The position numbers were made by a program, and so were the translations under genes. The notes below the pieces were generated by a model. The model saw only the letters and a program-made list of their open reading frames with translations. It was not told the DNA's origin and did not search any database. Positions 1-10,234 of a stretch of DNA of 64,000 nucleotides are shown one piece after another. The stretch lies in contig BOKX01000001.1 of assembly GCA_016861205.1 (NCBI GenBank), forward strand, positions 136,539-200,538, read 5' to 3'. The first letter of the stretch is position 1. Each line of letters starts with the position of its first letter. This DNA comes from Patescibacteria group bacterium (GTDB taxonomy: Bacteria; Patescibacteriota; Microgenomatia; UBA1400; PJMF01).

Positions 1-3000
1 TCGGCTTCTTCAGCATAGAACTCGGATAGGTCGGCGCCATTGGTCAGGTTTTTGATGTAGACCAGTTTTTCACCCGACAGTTTTTCCACCAACCGCAGCG
101 CTTTGGTCATGTCAGCGTTGATGGCTAGACCTCCCCGTTCTGAGTAGAAAGACCAAGCCAGGTCTTCGCTTTTGCCAGTCTCGATTTGGGAGAAGTTGTG
201 CGGTGACAAAGTGGTGACATTACCAGCTTCATCACGGACTTGGAGTTCGTGACTACCCGTCACGTCCACGGCAAAGAGCTGGACGCCGTCGGTGATGCTG
301 GTGGAAGGCGCGGTGGAACCGGCGATGGCCAGAGCTTTGGCGGCGGAGGTGCCAAAGGTGGTGGTGCCGATGCCGACGTTGCCTCCATCCGCAATCGCGA
401 ACACACTTGTGCTGCCGTCCTGAATATCGACGATAAGGGCGGCCCCGCCTAAGTGATTGATCTCAAATGGAGTAGCAGAACTGTTGCTAGAAATCAGATC
501 GAATGTTGATGAAGAAAGCATAAGTCTACTTGTTGAGCTGGTATAAATATCTAACGAGGTGCCGGGATTGGTAGTTCCAATGCCCAGATTTCCACCATTC
601 AAGTATGAGGCCCCGTTGCCGTCGAGCAATAAACTAGTTCCGTGAATGCTGTTAGCGCCAATTTCCATAGCGTAATCCTGGATGTCGGAGTCTGAGACAT
701 CAATGCCAATTTGGATACCAAAAGAGCTAGCCCCTGGAGTAACAGATGATATTTTCAAGCCTGCATCGCTGACTTCTGCAGTATTTTGATTGTCGATCAA
801 TAGCAAAGCGCTCATGCCCTTGTCACCAGCTGTGGTGTGTTGCAGGTTCATTAATACACCTGTATTCAAAGTGTCTGTTGAGTATCCACTAAATGATATG
901 CCAGGGACTGTGGAACTCGAGGAGATAGCGCTGGAAACATGCAACTTGGAGGTGGGGTTGGTAGTTCCTACTCCCACATTTCCTGACGATGCGATAACCA
1001 TCCTAGGATCAGTTGGGCCAAATGGTGTAAAGAATGCTGTATTGTAACTACTATTGTAGTACGGTTGAATCCAATTCTGGCCGTTATGGAAGATGTTCGC
1101 GCCCGCACCTTGCAGGTAGAGGTCTCCCTCTTGTCCCGCATAAATGCCTGCTGAGGTACCAGAGACCCTGATGTCACCGTGAACAGTTAGCAATGATGAT
1201 GGACTTGTGGTCCCGATACCCAAGTTACCTCCATTGGTTAAGACTAACTTTGTAGCTCCACTCGCGCTAGCACTCAAAATATTCCCCCCCAAAGTTTGGT
1301 TGACTGTGAAGGCATCATTAGCTCCGTAGCCGCCGTTGACGTGGAGAAGGGCTGTGGCAGTGGTAGTACCAATAGATATTTGGCCCCCACTGCTGATCCT
1401 CATCCGTTCATAACCTGAGGTTTGAGCATTGCCAGTAGTGAATGTCATGTAGCCAGCGATATCGCCACTTACTAATTGCAGTGCGGCAGTGTCTGTATAA
1501 ACAACACCAGTGTTGGCCCAGCCCGGGACAGTGGTCATTCCAGAAGACACAGCCTGCATTGATATCACTTTACTACTGGCTGTCTCGGCAGAAATTCCAG
1601 CTCTTCCATTGGTGCCACTAGTAGTATTTTTCACCAAAGCTATTGTTGGTGCATTTTGGTTCGATTCGACATGGAGGAGCTGCCCTGGAACAGTGGTGCC
1701 AATTCCTACGTACCCACTACTATCAATTCTGACTTTCTCGCCTGCATTTACCGTCAATCGCAAACTATTTTCACCGTGAGAATATGTAATACCACCTACA
1801 TCCTCATCGCCGCTGTCCCCTAGAAAGAGAGATGAATACCCGGCACTCGTCGTACCACCACGCAAATACAACTCGGCACGACCTGTTGTTCCTCCGGCCA
1901 AAACCTTAACTATGGCGTTGTTATCGTTGTGACCAGAACTATCAAACCGGACCAGTTCGCTGCCCGTGCCGTCAGTTGGGCCATATACATGAAGTTTGAC
2001 AGCTGGGCTTGATGTCCCAATTCCTAGATATCCAGATGCATTCACAGCTGACAAAACATTACTATTACTATCTTGCCACTCTTGCATATTGGCTGTATTT
2101 GATGCCGGTGGCCTTAAGACAAGCAATTTTGCCGTGGTTTTGCTGGTGGTAATGCGGACGATTTCAGATGCCTCAGTGCCGGCACTGTTAACTAACAAGG
2201 CAGTTGTACTCACAGGGACAGCGCCATATCCGATCGCTGTGTTACGCCACTGGCTTTTGATAATGCCAACTCCATCGTCTGATGACACTTGAAAACTGAA
2301 ATCGGTTTGATTGGGAGGAATTACTTGCAACATTGCACCAGGTATAGCGGTGCCGATTCCAACCCTGCCTCCATTACTGATCACAAACTTGGTCGCTCCA
2401 CTCGCACTGGCACTCAAGATATTGCCAGACAGTGTTTGATTAACGGTCAAAGCATCGTTGGCACCATAGCCACCATTGACGTGGAGCTTGGCAGTTGCAG
2501 TTTGTGTTGTGGTCCCAATGCCAACGTTATTTGTACTCGTATCGACTCGCATTATTTCTGTCACACCCCCTCCATAGAAAACTACGTCCCTTCCTGTAGC
2601 TGGGGTAAAGAATAAATCAGTTGTTCCGTAAGTCGAAATTTGTGCAATAGAATTTGTAGCATCTGTACCAAATCGAGAAACTAAAGCACCATTTTTGTAC
2701 AGATAAAAATTGCCACTGACATTAGTATCACTATTTACTTGAATGTTGCCATTTTTTACTTCTAACTTTTGACCTGGATCTGTCGTCCCAATCCCAAAAT
2801 TTCCAGTAGCTCTGTCAACCAAAAAGCCCGTCAAAGTTGGGTTAGCATCATTGATATCATTTCCAATATTCAGTAAGAAGTCATTATTAGCATCTACTCC
2901 CATTTTCCAAGTGTAGGTGGGGCCTGAGTACAGCACTGCTGCGCCACCGGCTTGATTGTTACCAATTGAGATCATACTTCGCTGCGGACTAACTCCACTG

Positions 3001-4946
3001 GCTCCCACAAATCGAGCTACGTACTGAGTAACAGCCGAAACATCAAGCTTGTAGGCGGGATTTGTGGTACCGATTCCGAGGTTGCCGGCATTGGTGAGCA
3101 CCATTTTAGTTGCCCCACTTGCGCTAGCGCTTAAGATGTTTCCGGAAAGGGTTTGGTTAACGGTAAAGGCATCAAAAGCATCATAGCCACCACTGATATG
3201 GAAAAATGAATTTGGTGCGGTTGTCCCGACACCCACTCGACCGGTTTCCATCACACTCATGGCCGTAGTGGATCCACCATTTGTTTTGAATCTAATGCCT
3301 TTCTCTCCTGCTCCAACTGTGTGTTGATTGAGCGTAATGTTTAAATCACTATGATAGGCTCCAATCAAACCTCCATTCATTAATACTCTTGAATCAAATT
3401 GCCAAACATCGTTTGTACTACCTCTAAAAGAAACTGCAGATGGTGTGCCATCATATGTAAAACCAATTAACTTATTTCCCCCCGAATTATAAAAACCTAT
3501 ACTAAGGCCATACGCTGATGTGCCATTGGCCAACGAAGCCCCAAATCTAGTTCCGAGCCAATTCAAAGAATCATTTGCAGAAACAAAGTTGGCTAATGTG
3601 GTCACTGCTGTTTGTCTGACGTCTAATGGGACACTCGGTGCGCTTGTCCCAATTCCCAACCGATTGTTAGTGTCGTCCCAAAAGAAGTTGGTGTTGTCTT
3701 GGGTTATCCCACTTGTTCCTTGGAACAGCACCGAGCCATTGGTCAGTCCTGGATTCAAACTTCCTGACACATTGGCCGCCCCATTAAACACGCCGCTGGC
3801 GTCGATGTAGCTCAACACTGAACCGGAAGAATCACGCCATTCGGTCAGGTTGGCAGTCTGGCCGGTGTAGCCTTGGATGATTTGGCCAATCTTGGTGGCC
3901 AAATTAGTGTAGACATGGAAGCGAGACACTGGGGTGGCAGTGGAAATACCCACCGAGCCGCCGTCATGGAATAGGTTGTTGCTAGCCGCCCAGTTGAGGC
4001 CGTTAAAGTACAGGGTCATGCCATTGGTGGCAGTAGGCAGCACTGCTTCGGCCGAAGGGGTAGCCGTGTCCCCGGTCTGGTCCTGGACCAGAATAATCTT
4101 GCCGCCGCTATCAACAGACAGCACTTTACCGCCACCGATGCCGGCGGCCGTGGAAGAAGTAATCCGTGTAAATGACACGCCACTGGCACCATCTGTGCCA
4201 GAGTCGATCTCGAGTTCGTTGGTGGGGGCAGAGGTGCCGATCCCAACATTATCCGTGCTGGACAACAGCACCACATTGGAACTGGAGGCTTTGTACCACC
4301 CAGATTGGTTGGCCGCGGTGACAGTTAATTTTTTGTCTGACGTATTGAGCGATAAACTTATACCGTCGCCGCTAGCAAACTCAAACGTATCGGTGTTAGA
4401 ACCAGCCTCAGCGGTATCACTGCCCACTTTGATTTTGCCAAAGATTTTCTGAGCGGAACCCCGATCGGTGTTAGTAATAGTCAAATCTTGGTCGCCACTG
4501 ACTTCGATTCCCCCTCCAGCAATCACTGAGTAAACCAGATTTGAAGCGGTAATTTCACCGGTGCCAACATCGATGTCAATGCCCTCAGCATTCAGATTGC
4601 CGAGTAACTGGGCGCCATTTTCTAGAACAACTTCATCCACAAACCGAGCTTGACCATTAAAAACTGACTGTTCTTCCACCACCAATGAGGCTAAAGTAAC
4701 TGCATCCGCAAACACTGCTGGAATGTTGACCTGGAACAAAGGAGACAAGATGGCGCTACCACTGGTTGAGTTCGTCGGCAGGAAACTAGTTCCGGTGGTA
4801 GGGGCTTGTGCAAGCAGAGTTGAGTCGCCGAGGACCTGCCCAAGTCGCTGATACCCCAAAACAGCACCGACACCACGCGCCGACAGTACGGCCAAGCCTA
4901 AAGAAGCGCACCACAGACCGATTATTTTTAAGCGTTTCGATCGCAT
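1..4946 (-). CDS. Giant exported repeat protein (fibre/adhesin-like, GIGTTxP repeats), 3' end outside window, >1648 aa
   Basis: Manual translation from ATG at 4946: MRSKRLKIIGLWCASLGLAVLSARGVGA (signal/TM). About 15 G(I/V)G(T)TxP repeats follow. The same frame reads ...RDEAGNVTTLSPHNFSQ...WSFYSER...GADLSEFYAEEA at the window edge. Its absence from the ORF track fits an ORF with no in-window stop. Confidence 0.9.
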   Translation of the reverse strand, partial: MRSKRLKIIGLWCASLGLAVLSARGVGAVLGYQRLGQVLGDSTLLAQAPTTGTSFLPTNSTSGSAILSPLFQVNIPAVFADAVTLASLVVEEQSVFNGQARFVDEVVLENGAQLLGNLNAEGIDIDVGTGEITASNLVYSVIAGGGIEVSGDQDLTITNTDRGSAQKIFGKIKVGSDTAEAGSNTDTFEFASGDGISLSLNTSDKKLTVTAANQSGWYKASSSNVVLLSSTDNVGIGTSAPTNELEIDSGTDGASGVSFTRITSSTAAGIGGGKVLSVDSGGKIILVQDQTGDTATPSAEAVLPTATNGMTLYFNGLNWAASNNLFHDGGSVGISTATPVSRFHVYTNLATKIGQIIQGYTGQTANLTEWRDSSGSVLSYIDASGVFNGAANVSGSLNPGLTNGSVLFQGTSGITQDNTNFFWDDTNNRLGIGTSAPSVPLDVRQTAVTTLANFVSANDSLNWLGTRFGASLANGTSAYGLSIGFYNSGGNKLIGFTYDGTPSAVSFRGSTNDVWQFDSRVLMNGGLIGAYHSDLNITLNQHTVGAGEKGIRFKTNGGSTTAMSVMETGRVGVGTTAPNSFFHISGGYDAFDAFTVNQTLSGNILSASASGATKMVLTNAGNLGIGTTNPAYKLDVSAVTQYVARFVGASGVSPQRSMISIGNNQAGGAAVLYSGPTYTWKMGVDANNDFLLNIGNDINDANPTLTGFLVDRATGNFGIGTTDPGQKLEVKNGNIQVNSDTNVSGNFYLYKNGALVSRFGTDATNSIAQISTYGTTDLFFTPATGRDVVFYGGGVTEIMRVDTSTNNVGIGTTTQTATAKLHVNGGYGANDALTVNQTLSGNILSASASGATKFVISNGGRVGIGTAIPGAMLQVIPPNQTDFSFQVSSDDGVGIIKSQWRNTAIGYGAVPVSTTALLVNSAGTEASEIVRITTSKTTAKLLVLRPPASNTANMQEWQDSNSNVLSAVNASGYLGIGTSSPAVKLHVYGPTDGTGSELVRFDSSGHNDNNAIVKVLAGGTTGRAELYLRGGTTSAGYSSLFLGDSGDEDVGGITYSHGENSLRLTVNAGEKVRIDSSGYVGIGTTVPGQLLHVESNQNAPTIALVKNTTSGTNGRAGISAETASSKVISMQAVSSGMTTVPGWANTGVVYTDTAALQLVSGDIAGYMTFTTGNAQTSGYERMRISSGGQISIGTTTATALLHVNGGYGANDAFTVNQTLGGNILSASASGATKLVLTNGGNLGIGTTSPSSLLTVHGDIRVSGTSAGIYAGQEGDLYLQGAGANIFHNGQNWIQPYYNSSYNTAFFTPFGPTDPRMVIASSGNVGVGTTNPTSKLHVSSAISSSSTVPGISFSGYSTDTLNTGVLMNLQHTTAGDKGMSALLLIDNQNTAEVSDAGLKISSVTPGASSFGIQIGIDVSDSDIQDYAMEIGANSIHGTSLLLDGNGASYLNGGNLGIGTTNPGTSLDIYTSSTSRLMLSSSTFDLISSNSSATPFEINHLGGAALIVDIQDGSTSVFAIADGGNVGIGTTTFGTSAAKALAIAGSTAPSTSITDGVQLFAVDVTGSHELQVRDEAGNVTTLSPHNFSQIETGKSEDLAWSFYSERGGLAINADMTKALRLVEKLSGEKLVYIKNLTNGADLSEFYAEEA

Positions 4947-4954
4947 TTTATTTA

Positions 4955-5042
4955 CAACACCACACACACCACTTAGTGCCTTTCCGACCTTGGGGGGAAA
5001 GGTTGACTGTGGTGTTGCACTATTAACACTGACGTTCAGTGT
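4955..5042 (-). promoter_or_regulatory. Structured 5' leader and divergent promoter region of the giant gene
   Basis: Stems caacaccaca (4955-4964)/tgtggtgttg (5008-5017) and cctttcc (4979-4985)/ggaaagg (4996-5002). Inverted repeat acactga-cgt-tcagtgt (5026-5042) overlaps a minus-strand TACACT -10-like box. Confidence 0.5.
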
Positions 5043-5136: not shown

Positions 5137-5952
5137 ATGAAAAACAGCTTGAGGTTTTTGGTGGTTTTGGGCTTAATAGCTCTTGGTGTTCGTCTGATAC
5201 CAGTCCAGTCAGTGATCGCACAAACTGCCGGTTTATCGTTGGGTATCGGTCAATCAATTAAGGTTTCAGGTGTCAGCACCGTGGCCAACGGTTCTATCAT
5301 TTCCTTTCAAAACAATCAGTATCAACTGAGTGCTGAATCGTACGATAAAAGTATGTTTGGGGTGAGTGCCACCAATCCGGCAATTGAAGTCACCGATAGT
5401 ACCACCAGAAATGAACCGGGAGTTACCTCGGTGCTCAGAAGTGGTCAAGTCCAAGTCCGAGTAAATGGTCGCAATGGGGCAATTATCAAAGGTGATCGGA
5501 TTACCAGCTCAGATCAGCCGGGTGTCGGTATGAAGGCCGTCAAAAGTGGTTTTGTGCTGGGGGTGGCGGAGGGCAGCTTTTCGCCGAGCTCAGAAACTGA
5601 TGAAGGCTTGATTCCCGTGACACTCGACATCAAGTTCACCTTTGCTGAAGACACACCTGGATCCGAGCGAATTGCAGCCCGTCTCAAAGATGTTGTTAGT
5701 TTAAGCACCGTTTCAATTGCTGAGGACCCACTCCAAACATTGCGCTATGTAGTGGCAGGCGTGGTGGTAATCGGAGCATTTACCTTTGCCTTCTTTACTT
5801 TTGGCCGATTGGCACACAACGGTATTGAGGCCTTGGGCCGCAACCCATTGGCCAGCCGGCCGATTGTGGCTGCGATGTTTTTTAATATCTTGGTAGCTCT
5901 AGGAATCATGTTGACCGGCTTGGTAGCTGCGTATCTGATAGTAACTTGGTAG
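5137..5952 (+). CDS. Signal-peptide protein: extracellular beta domain fused to a C-terminal ATP synthase subunit-c-like hairpin
   Basis: N-terminal signal peptide, then GQVQVRV..NGAIIKGDRITSSDQPGVGMKA domain, then two TM helices joined by GIEALGRNPLA (c-subunit EAxARNP/RQP loop). Lies directly upstream of the atpA-like gene. Confidence 0.75.
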   Translation: MKNSLRFLVVLGLIALGVRLIPVQSVIAQTAGLSLGIGQSIKVSGVSTVANGSIISFQNNQYQLSAESYDKSMFGVSATNPAIEVTDSTTRNEPGVTSVLRSGQVQVRVNGRNGAIIKGDRITSSDQPGVGMKAVKSGFVLGVAEGSFSPSSETDEGLIPVTLDIKFTFAEDTPGSERIAARLKDVVSLSTVSIAEDPLQTLRYVVAGVVVIGAFTFAFFTFGRLAHNGIEALGRNPLASRPIVAAMFFNILVALGIMLTGLVAAYLIVTW

Positions 5953-5972: not shown

Positions 5973-7402
5973 ATGCCAAACACTGCGACTGTTGTCACTG
6001 TTAATCATCAACTGGTTACCATAGCGGGTTTGCCAGTCGTCAGGCCCGGGGCGGTGGTCGCTTTTGCTGACGATGGTTTGGGGTTGGTAACAGGTTTCAA
6101 TCAAGAATATGTCGAAGCGATCGTGTTCAATGAGCAACCTGTGCCAGTTGGGACGGCGGTCACGTTGTTGCAGCAAACTTTTGAAGTGCCTGTTTCGGGC
6201 TCATTATTGGGGCGTGTCATCAGCCCTTTAGGCAAAGCGCTCGATAGTAAACGGCTAGCTGAAAGTGAAGAAACTCGCCACTATAACACCCATCCCCTCC
6301 CCTTGCCGCAACGTTCACGCATCCAACAGCAATGTTTGACTGGTGTTGGTGTGGTAGATCTGCTCTTACCAATTGGAATGGGACAGCGGGAGCTGGTTGT
6401 TGGTGACCAAAAGGCCGGTAAGACGGCTTTTTTGGAACAGGCAGCTATTGCACAAGCACGCAGAGGGACAATTGTTATCTGGGCAGCTATCGGCCAAACA
6501 GCGGGTGAGATTAAACACCTGACACGCCAGTTGGATGCGGCCAAGATTTGGGATCAGACCATTGTGGTAGCGACTATGGCTCAAGAATCAGCAAGTCAAA
6601 TCTACTTAACACCATTCACAGCCTTAACCATGGCTGAGTACTTCCGGGATCAAGGACTTGATACCTTAGTTATCCTCGATGACTTGACCACTCACGCTCG
6701 AGCGTATCGCGAGTTGGCTCTATTAGCCAAACGTTTTCCAGGCCGTGATTCATATCCGGGCGATATGTTCTATATCCATGCGCGGCTGTTAGAGCGGGCT
6801 GGGAGTTTTACGCACCCGACCCTGCCAGACCAAACTGTGACAATTACTTGCCTGCCTGTAGCCGAGACGCATGAGAGTGATCTGACCAGTTATATTGTGT
6901 CAAACCTGATTAGTATCACCGATGGTCATTTGTTGTTTGATACCCAGCTCTTTAACCAGGGTCAGCGACCAGCTGTTAACATCGGTCTGTCGGTGACACG
7001 TGTCGGTAAACAGACGCAAACAAAGCTGCAGCGGGATTTGAGCCGTGAGCTGACCGCCTTTTTGGCAGAGTACTCGCAAACAGAAAAGCTCGTGCATTTT
7101 GGAGCGGAGCTGACTGATGCTACGCAGCAAGTAATCAAGAAAGGCCAGTCGTTACAAGCCTTTTTTAGTCAGGAACCAAGCACTACTATGAGTGCGGATG
7201 CGGTCGTGATTGGGGCGATGCTCATTTGGCTGGGTTGGTGGCAAACTGTCGAACGACTACAAATGTTGGCGCAACGTGATCACCTGGTGGCTCAGCTCAA
7301 GTTGCCGACGGGTCGCAAGTTGGCTGAGCAGTTGTTGGCTCAACCTGATTTGACTGCGTTAACAAATGCCATGCACGAACACCGGGCTGAGTTGGAGGAT
7401 TT

Positions 7403-7415
<13 letters not shown>
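5973..7415 (+). CDS. atpA: F1-like ATPase subunit alpha (divergent, N-terminally shortened)
   Basis: GQRELVVGDQKAGKT, DDLTTHARAYRE, PGRDSYPGDMFYIHARLLERA, ISITDG, RPAVNIGLSVTRVG. Confidence 0.95.
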
Positions 7416-10009
<2,594 letters not shown>

Positions 10010-10059
10010 AACTCCATTGTAGCAGTTTGGATTTGCTAAGTGACTGGGAACTGTCATCG

Positions 10060-10190
10060 CCCGCCGATGGCGGGGCGCTGTAGATCAGATTAAAGTGCTC
10101 CAAGGGGCTTGAAGGTGCAACCTCCCCGCCGATGGCGGGGCGCTCTAGGTCAGATTAAAGTGCTCCAAGCAGGACTTGAACCTGCAACCT
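10060..10190. repeat. Tandem ~64-bp imperfect direct repeat: GC palindrome plus tRNA-Arg 3' end
   Basis: cccgccgatggcggggcgct..agattaaagtgctccaag..cttgaa..tgcaacct at 10060-10123 and 10125-10190. Confidence 0.85.
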
Positions 10191-10234
10191 TCTGTTCCGA
10201 AGACAGACGCTCTATCCAATTGAGCTATTGGAGC
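10161..10234 (-). tRNA. tRNA-Arg(TCG)
   Basis: GCTCCAATAGCTCAATTGGATAGAGCG TCTGT-CT-TCG-GA-ACAGA AGGTTGCAGGTTCAAGTCCTGCTTGGAGCA. Confidence 0.95.

Follow-up and report, generated by a model that had tools for sequence, protein, structure and literature searches.

A subunit c homologue lacking the ion-binding carboxylate is fused to an autochaperone-like domain in an F1-like operon of Patescibacteria

Introduction

What can a rotary ATPase accomplish if its ring subunit carries no ion-binding residue? This question is raised by a gene, which we designated c*, that precedes a set of F1-like genes in a Patescibacteria group bacterium. The gene lies within a stretch of 64,000 nucleotides (contig BOKX01000001.1, positions 136,539 to 200,538), referred to here as the window, and coordinates are window positions unless a locus or genome is named. 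The initial annotation dealt with the C-terminal hairpin of the c* protein; the autochaperone-like domain fused to the hairpin and the lack of subunit a in the operon were not mentioned.

Results

c* encodes a subunit c homologue without the ion-binding carboxylate

The c* gene and the parts of its product are arranged as follows.

5137..5952, + strand: c* fusion gene (ORF P0001, 271 aa), encoding a signal peptide, beta domain, linker helix and subunit-c-like hairpin
5137..5220, + strand: predicted Sec signal peptide, residues 1-28, with predicted cleavage after V-I-A and before Q
5242..5640, + strand: predicted exported beta domain, residues 36-168, with the fold of the phi29 gp12 C-terminal autochaperone and of capsid cement proteins
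5671..5724, + strand: linker helix ahead of the first membrane helix in the structural model, residues 179-196
5728..5952, + strand: subunit-c-like hairpin, residues 198-271
5836..5847, + strand: invariant G-R-N-P loop, the F1-docking loop of subunit c, net positive and predicted to be cytoplasmic
5884..5886, + strand: conserved Asn250, five residues ahead of Leu255
5899..5901, + strand: Leu255, at the Pro+18 position, replacing the ion-binding Glu/Asp

When c* was scanned as a single sequence, no Pfam family was found at E ≤ 1 and no NCBIfam family at E ≤ 0.01, and in the ESM Atlas it fell into unnamed clusters only. A profile of 68 sequences (P0001 and 67 homologues) was compared with PDB sequences, and all seven matches at E ≤ 10, including 4BEM, were subunit c (best E 0.013). 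PF00137 matched 16 of the 68 family members at E ≤ 0.1 (best 4.4e-4), and hhalign comparison with 15 canonical Patescibacteria c subunits gave a probability of 96.8% (E 2.7e-10) across 61 columns. In a structure search of 48,161 chains, the best matches to the hairpin were subunit c chains (ranks 4-11, Z 9.8-10.5, rmsd 1.4-3.0), a match that is weak on its own because unrelated helical hairpins reach Z 9.5. Profile and structure comparisons both matched subunit c, and the descent from subunit c proposed in the initial annotation is confirmed beyond chance.

The loop G234-R235-N236-P237 was unchanged in all 68 homologues and was the most conserved part of the protein (0.76, versus 0.50-0.56 for the helices), which bears out the earlier reading that the RNP loop and its F1-docking surface are kept. 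Selection of this strength implies that the loop would still dock to gamma and epsilon. Neither Asp nor Glu was present at Pro+18, the position of Leu255, in three overlapping sets of homologues (0 of 68, 0 of 146 and 0 of 81), in keeping with the Leu that the annotation had noted in this one sequence; a single Asp was found eight places beyond Pro+18 in one of the 146. The canonical Patescibacteria c subunits carried a carboxylate in the same part of the alignment in 15 of 15 cases, and exactly at Pro+18 in 14 of them. The claim that helix 1 has bulky Phe in place of the GxGxGxG packing motif was correct in part. Most of the glycines are gone (2.0-2.3 per helix, versus 5.8 in canonical c) and Phe replaces a motif Gly in 196 of 227 homologues, but one motif Gly (Pro-14) survives in 178 of the 227. 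The mean volume of helix 1 was 139, versus 118 in canonical c. Three polar residues recurred in the hairpin, namely Asn at Pro+13 (Asn250 in c*; 208/227), Tyr at Pro-33 (215/227) and Ser at Pro-23 (158/227). Both helices are otherwise hydrophobic, with conserved Phe and no charge.

The AlphaFold model of the c* monomer (pLDDT 89.7) has a hydrophobic helix at residues 2-20, and 55 of the 68 homologues show a loose A-x-A-like pattern at the end of the signal peptide. The loop carried a mean charge of +2.7 across 214 homologues. Together, the signal peptide and the net-positive loop place residues 29-197 outside the cell and the G-R-N-P loop inside, as in subunit c; c* is thus predicted to be exported, with its N-terminal domain outside.

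The c* operon encodes F1-like subunits but no subunit a

Genes for alpha, gamma and beta follow 3' of c* in that order, and epsilon lies on the opposite strand.

5973..7415, + strand: alpha-like subunit, arginine finger kept
7403..8293, + strand: gamma-like subunit (PF00231, E 1.8e-17)
8319..9710, + strand: beta-like subunit, with Walker A, catalytic Glu and Walker B intact
9707..10057, - strand: epsilon-like subunit consisting of the beta-sandwich only (PF02823, E 4e-10), inverted and convergent on beta

The window epsilon lacks the C-terminal helical domain, and no subunit a was found in the window operon. A contig from another study runs uninterrupted across the complete operon, differing by 69 substitutions but without a gap, which rules out misassembly as the source of the gene order. 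Among the 11 changed codons listed for c* in this comparison, eight were silent and none lay in the hairpin. A scan for promoters and terminators gave counts not above those in shuffled sequence (5 versus 5.2; 9 versus 6.0). Inversion of epsilon relative to beta was also observed in loci L013, L014, L016, L105, L165, L166, L167 and L168, and in L167 a 1,431-aa gene lies between epsilon and beta. The interval separating epsilon from the neighbouring tRNA-Arg gene (10055-10234) contains a short direct repeat that looks like the end of the tRNA gene and is possibly an integration scar.

Relatives were sought in 185,579 genomes; 398 were confirmed, and the best 80 of these 398 loci were analysed. 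The usual order was c*, b-like, delta-like, alpha, gamma, beta and a short epsilon, which is the atp order without a. The catalytic residues of beta (Walker A Lys/Thr, catalytic Glu, Arg and Walker B Asp) were kept in 61 of 61 variant betas and the arginine finger of alpha in 67 of 67. Epsilon measured 79-152 aa, mostly less than 110, and was without the helical domain, while the DELSEED motif of beta was reduced to (S/A/G)-E-L-S-x-(E/D)-D. In a tree that included 50 of 63 betas (13 were left out), a 100/99 branch set the 24 variant betas apart from all the others, the canonical and N-type betas among them. One Listeria beta and one mycoplasma type 3 beta adjoined the variants and were parted from the N-type and canonical betas by a 95/93 branch, subject to a long-branch caveat.

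Two candidates for a hidden subunit a were rejected. Genes upstream of the operon in a distant group appeared to be housekeeping genes when identified by eye from their sequences, and a 560-aa gene found inside some operons is phosphoglycerate mutase. The latter gene, gpmI, lies between c* and the b-like gene (L171:7268-8950, the one tested), and similar-sized genes occur in L169, L170, L172 and L175. This placement recalls the glycolytic enzyme of the gliding ATPase of Mycoplasma mobile.

The numbers of beta and subunit a were assessed in 40 genomes chosen because c* was present. Fifteen had one beta and no a, 24 had two betas (23 of these with exactly one a), and one had neither; in 38 of the 39 c* genomes with a beta, there was one a fewer than betas. 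The c*-linked set was therefore the only F1 in 15 of the 40. PF00119, the subunit a family, gave nothing above cut-off in these 15 one-beta genomes, and no canonical c was found in four of the five that were tested, the fifth having only a 188-aa double hairpin. These counts strengthen the earlier proposal that carboxylate-based ion translocation is lost, since the system also lacks subunit a.

Ion movement could persist in another form, either as a gated leak or by chemistry involving Asn250, Ser214 and Tyr204 together with an a-like partner that has escaped recognition. The conservation of these three residues speaks for such chemistry. However, the helices are uncharged, PF00119 was silent in the one-beta genomes, and among 1,204 clustered neighbours no recurrent multi-pass membrane protein was present except a site-2-protease-like gene in a housekeeping block. 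We consider this explanation very unlikely.

The genome of the window also contains a full canonical atp operon, and c* might mix into the canonical c-ring and tune or uncouple the normal ATP synthase. Mixed rings containing site-less hairpins are known from Acetobacterium. Against this, c* is accompanied by its own alpha, gamma, beta and epsilon, 15 of the 40 genomes have neither a nor a second beta, and most of those tested lack a canonical c to mix with; we regard a mixed ring as extremely improbable. The canonical operon has peculiarities of its own: its delta is only 74 aa, and about 80 acidic, low-complexity residues are inserted in its subunit a (L001:747-971 and 1723-2709).

Other arrangements of the variant genes were also observed. 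Locus L054 (688-2700, end approximate) contains c*, gamma and epsilon only, without alpha, beta, b or delta, so that the rotor genes are kept together. Two variant alpha/beta sets besides the canonical one seem to be present in one genome (G305:C1:1346015-1349028 and 1460266-1463410), and likewise in G303. In the distant group, stand-alone c* paralogues lie among genes for proteins of 600-2,000 aa, away from F1 genes (L097, L098, L101, L103 and L092), and are possibly interchangeable adaptors; in L097, L098, L101 and L103 these neighbours measure 900-2,000 aa.

The predicted exported domain of c* is shared with giant fibre-like proteins

To the structure of c* residues 36-164, the best match among the 48,161 chains was the phi29 gp12 autochaperone (3GQH; Z 14.6, rmsd 2.2, 117 residues), beginning at gp12 residue 692, and the next-best structures were trimeric capsid cement proteins. 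In gp12 this domain aids folding and trimerisation of the spike and is then cleaved off, according to the available text of two reports (PMC3357383, PMC4690869). The beta domain of c* is also present in giant Patescibacteria proteins (iE down to 5e-32), mostly 200-550 residues before the C-terminal end; tail-fibre parts occur in these giants as well, frequently with a MerR-type or integrase SAM-like domain at the N-terminus. The beta domain is more widespread than c* and is present in many genomes that lack c*: in a draw of 301 genomes from the phylum, any match was present in 161 and c* in about 41 among the matches listed. Several of the c* genomes in this draw had no second match to the domain among those listed.

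A D-x-x-E motif was present at the start of 15 of 17 giant-protein domains and of none of the 68 c* domains. The Glu of this motif is presumably catalytic for self-cleavage, and the original gp12 structure paper reportedly described ATP-dependent release and a catalytic Glu. Because the motif is gone, c* presents a non-cleaving copy of the domain. The mature N-terminus of c* would fall where the released autochaperone fragment would start.

A giant gene adjoins c* in the window.

3..4967, - strand: giant secreted-fibre-like gene, divergent from c*, about 1,850 aa and running off the window; the first of three tandem giants, without the shared beta domain

The shared domain was absent from all three giants adjoining c*. 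The only domain-bearing giant found in this genome is a 4,477-aa protein encoded 800 kb away (L123:3038-16471; G000:C1:946040-959479), which also has an N-terminal integrase SAM-like domain and carries the shared domain at about residues 3,810-3,960. Across the relatives, 47 loci had at least 3.6 kb of flank, and in 30 of these a gene of at least 700 aa lay within 1.5 kb upstream of c*, nearly always divergent; 29 of the 47 qualified at a threshold of at least 1,000 aa, and 17 had no such large gene upstream. In the genome of the window, genes of at least 700 aa made up 110 of 870 (12.6%) and those of at least 1,000 aa 2.7%, although the excess at c* is overstated because kin share gene order. 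The giants near c* often start with MerR-type HTH or integrase SAM-like domains.

The proximity of giants to c* and the bulkier helix 1 would fit a ring with the wider pore that the annotation had raised as a possibility, in this case one that exports the giants, with F1 serving as an unfoldase in the manner of a type III export ATPase. A protein-translocase ancestry of rotary ATPases has been argued, as far as the accessible part of that preprint goes (bioRxiv 10.64898/2026.10.01.756066). The gene content and the proteins themselves speak against such a pore. The system retains gamma and epsilon, which would cap the ring; the two helices are hydrophobic, and their conserved Phe could as well fill the lumen; and the giant beside c* begins with a hydrophobic leader of its own. 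Capping of the c-ring by gamma and epsilon is established for F-ATPases. We judge an exporting pore to be distinctly unlikely.

Stator genes are usually kept but are missing from the window operon

Of the 68 relative loci in which c* and alpha are neighbours, 66 have b-like and delta-like genes between the two (65 called automatically, and L039). The delta-like proteins matched PF00213 in three of four tested, and the b-like proteins were called from position, shape and a profile match to canonical b at E 5e-5. Neither gene is present in the window operon, and a profile search of the genome found the canonical b and delta only. The N-terminal extension of the window alpha is short, with 5 residues from the ATG, or 14 if a TTG at 5946 is used. 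The same reduction occurs in L010, L015, G318, G319 and G245. The G245 genome, a single contig that is 99% complete, has one beta; a, b, delta and canonical c were all sought there without success. Borrowing of stator subunits is thus no explanation in G245, unless diverged copies were missed. The idea that the N-terminal helix of alpha is lost whenever b and delta are lost fits the data poorly, as L108 keeps 16 residues without them and L014 has 9 with them.

Retention of b-like and delta-like genes in most operons implies a stator and a turning ring. Where both are missing, the head has no known stator, which is hard to reconcile with steady torque. The ring could instead be a fixed membrane anchor, pinned from outside by its exported domain, while the alpha3beta3 head turns or ratchets on a cytoplasmic partner such as the foot of a giant fibre, or dissipates ATP. 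Operons without b and delta, including that of G245, are consistent with this arrangement, as are the MerR-type HTH or integrase SAM-like starts of giants near c*, and the available text of a preprint predicts that alpha of mycoplasma type 3 has no delta-binding helix (bioRxiv 10.64898/2025.12.04.692339). A fixed ring with a working head suits the stalk-less copies better than a turning ring does. However, b and delta are kept in most operons, and their loss tracks the shortening of alpha poorly; we regard the fixed anchor as rather unlikely.

Discussion

An ion-uncoupled ATPase is proposed as the best explanation for c*

The absence of both the carboxylate and subunit a excludes H+- or Na+-coupled synthesis on established knowledge of Fo, and intact catalytic sites together with a short epsilon make hydrolysis the expected direction. 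The explanation that we favour, and to which we give an even chance, is an ion-uncoupled ATPase in which c* forms an ion-blind rotor ring and ATP hydrolysis is converted to mechanical work on giant surface fibres. In such a machine, 8-20 copies of c* would form a ring docking gamma and epsilon, and the enzyme could only hydrolyse ATP. The crown of non-cleaving chaperone-like domains would bind trimeric fibres, either by their matching domain or by the stalk. The ring would then turn or pull the fibres for assembly, release, tension or repositioning during host attachment. In operons devoid of b and delta, such as that of the window, the counter-torque would need another anchor. The simplest use of an ion-free turning ring is to move the exported domain fused to it, whose relatives handle trimeric fibres. 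The link to fibres draws on the domain shared with giant proteins, on the frequent adjacency of a large gene and on the stand-alone c* paralogues among large genes. A trimer-type domain on a c-type ring is only a loose fit, which counts against a fibre motor. A strict partnership with the giants is also opposed by the 17 of 47 loci that have no large gene upstream, by the absence of the shared domain from the three giants beside c* and by the wider distribution of that domain. Mycoplasma F1-like ATPases serve surface functions, according to the accessible portions of two sources (bioRxiv 10.64898/2025.12.04.692339; PMC3369863).

A bolder form of this explanation holds that an F-type ATP synthase has become a rotary appendage motor, in which an autochaperone-crowned, ion-blind ring takes hold of giant tail-fibre-like adhesins to spin or reel them. 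We offer it tentatively and consider it on balance improbable. If true, it would join the flagellum and the archaellum as a third type of rotary appendage motor, with a minimal set of five genes in the window (c*, alpha, gamma, beta and epsilon).

The c* family has several further consequences. The two jobs of subunit c, F1 docking and ion carrying, are separated in a natural and widespread family, and c* is a candidate rotor for the "non-respiratory" F-type ATPases of host-dependent bacteria. In the 15 of 40 genomes whose only F1 genes belong to the c* system, the cells likely lack an ATP synthase despite annotation of atpA and atpD, so that metabolic readings of c* genomes change. The system also suggests a testable energy source for giant Patescibacteria surface fibres, and provides a living example for those debating whether a rotary ATPase can act on proteins rather than ions.

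Comparison with known systems

Canonical F-type subunit c (PF00137; PDB 2WIE, 4V1F, 6YNW) shares with c* the hairpin fold, the R-N-P loop and the predicted N-out/C-out topology, and in the canonical atp operon c precedes b-delta-alpha-gamma-beta-epsilon, as c* does. In contrast, c* has no Glu/Asp at the ion site, a single remaining motif Gly and an exported extension of 170 residues, and its system has no a, an epsilon without the C-terminal domain, an altered DELSEED and a beta on a separate long branch. The gp12 autochaperone (PDB 3GQH/3SUC; Pfam PF11962) and capsid cement proteins resemble residues 36-164 in fold. The c* domain starts at the same point as the released gp12 fragment; unlike gp12, it has no D-x-x-E (0/68) and no fibre ahead of the domain, and its membrane tether is a c hairpin.

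The c* system is not a member of the ion-translocating F-ATPases, the N-ATPases or mycoplasma types 2/3, and most likely works like the last of these. N-ATPases are likewise extra F-type enzymes beside a main one, but they keep a and a carboxylate-bearing c, in the order beta-epsilon-x-x-a-c-b-alpha-gamma given in the accessible text of PMC11738941. The c* set differs from them in gene order and beta clade and falls below the TIGR03305 and TIGR03324 cut-offs. An N-type operon with a 182-aa c subunit was observed on a haloarchaeal plasmid (L155:6836-13648, NZ_CP100463.1). The ProAD resource includes 20 F/N enzymes whose c lacks the acid, subunit a being required for inclusion in the portion of the paper available (PMC11738941).

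Mycoplasma type 2 (G1, gliding) and type 3 (MIB-MIP) F1-like X0 ATPases resemble the c* system in their alpha, beta, gamma and epsilon, in having no a, in their uncharged membrane segments and in a tie to a surface function, as described in the available parts of PMC3369863 and bioRxiv 10.64898/2025.12.04.692339. Their membrane proteins are stated there to be non-homologous to Fo subunits, whereas c* can be recognised as a c, and most c* operons retain b/delta. The window alpha and beta scored below four NCBIfam cut-offs for types 2/3, and no neighbours of c* operons resembled the mycoplasma 12-helix protein 1 or protein 5.

Within the Patescibacteria, Southlakia epibionticum is annotated with one canonical operon in the seven rows available from supplement 1 of PMC10633639, and is thus probably no model for the c* system. 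Truncated operons are mentioned and CPR beta neighbourhoods examined in the accessible part of a recent preprint (bioRxiv 10.64898/2026.10.01.756066). In the literature searched, leaving aside the supplements of that preprint, PMC10066038 and PMC11738941, no rotor made from a fusion of c with an autochaperone was described.

In Omnitrophota, "symbiotic" non-respiratory F-type ATPases have betas that cluster with Saccharimonadia betas (Seymour et al. 2023, PMC10066038, in its accessible text). As with c*, these are a second, non-respiratory F-type cluster in small host-dependent bacteria. The Saccharimonadia betas of that study, matched by description only, are likely the distant group of c* operons. 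The Omnitrophota clusters adjoin type-4a pilus genes, unlike the c* operons, among whose 30 commonest neighbour clusters no pilus family was found by eye. The available part of the Omnitrophota description contains no membrane part, missing carboxylate or c-fusion (PMC10066038).

A close design parallel to the c* system is the second atp cluster of Listeria monocytogenes, lmo0086-lmo0094, named an "ATP synthase-like operon" in the available text of PMC13082608. It encodes c, a delta-like protein, alpha, gamma, beta and a short epsilon, with no a (L152:2117-16257, NZ_LR134402.1), and is preceded by large unknown genes of 1,959 and 768 aa. Val occupies the carboxylate position in its c, which is likewise without the acid. 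This c differs from c* in being a stand-alone protein of 80 aa with a Gly-rich helix 1 and no exported domain, and the cluster has a 343-aa delta-containing protein and a beta outside the Patescibacteria variant clade. Related "non-respiratory" F-ATPases have thus already been published, and the c* set is a variant of these with a recognisable, ion-blind rotor.
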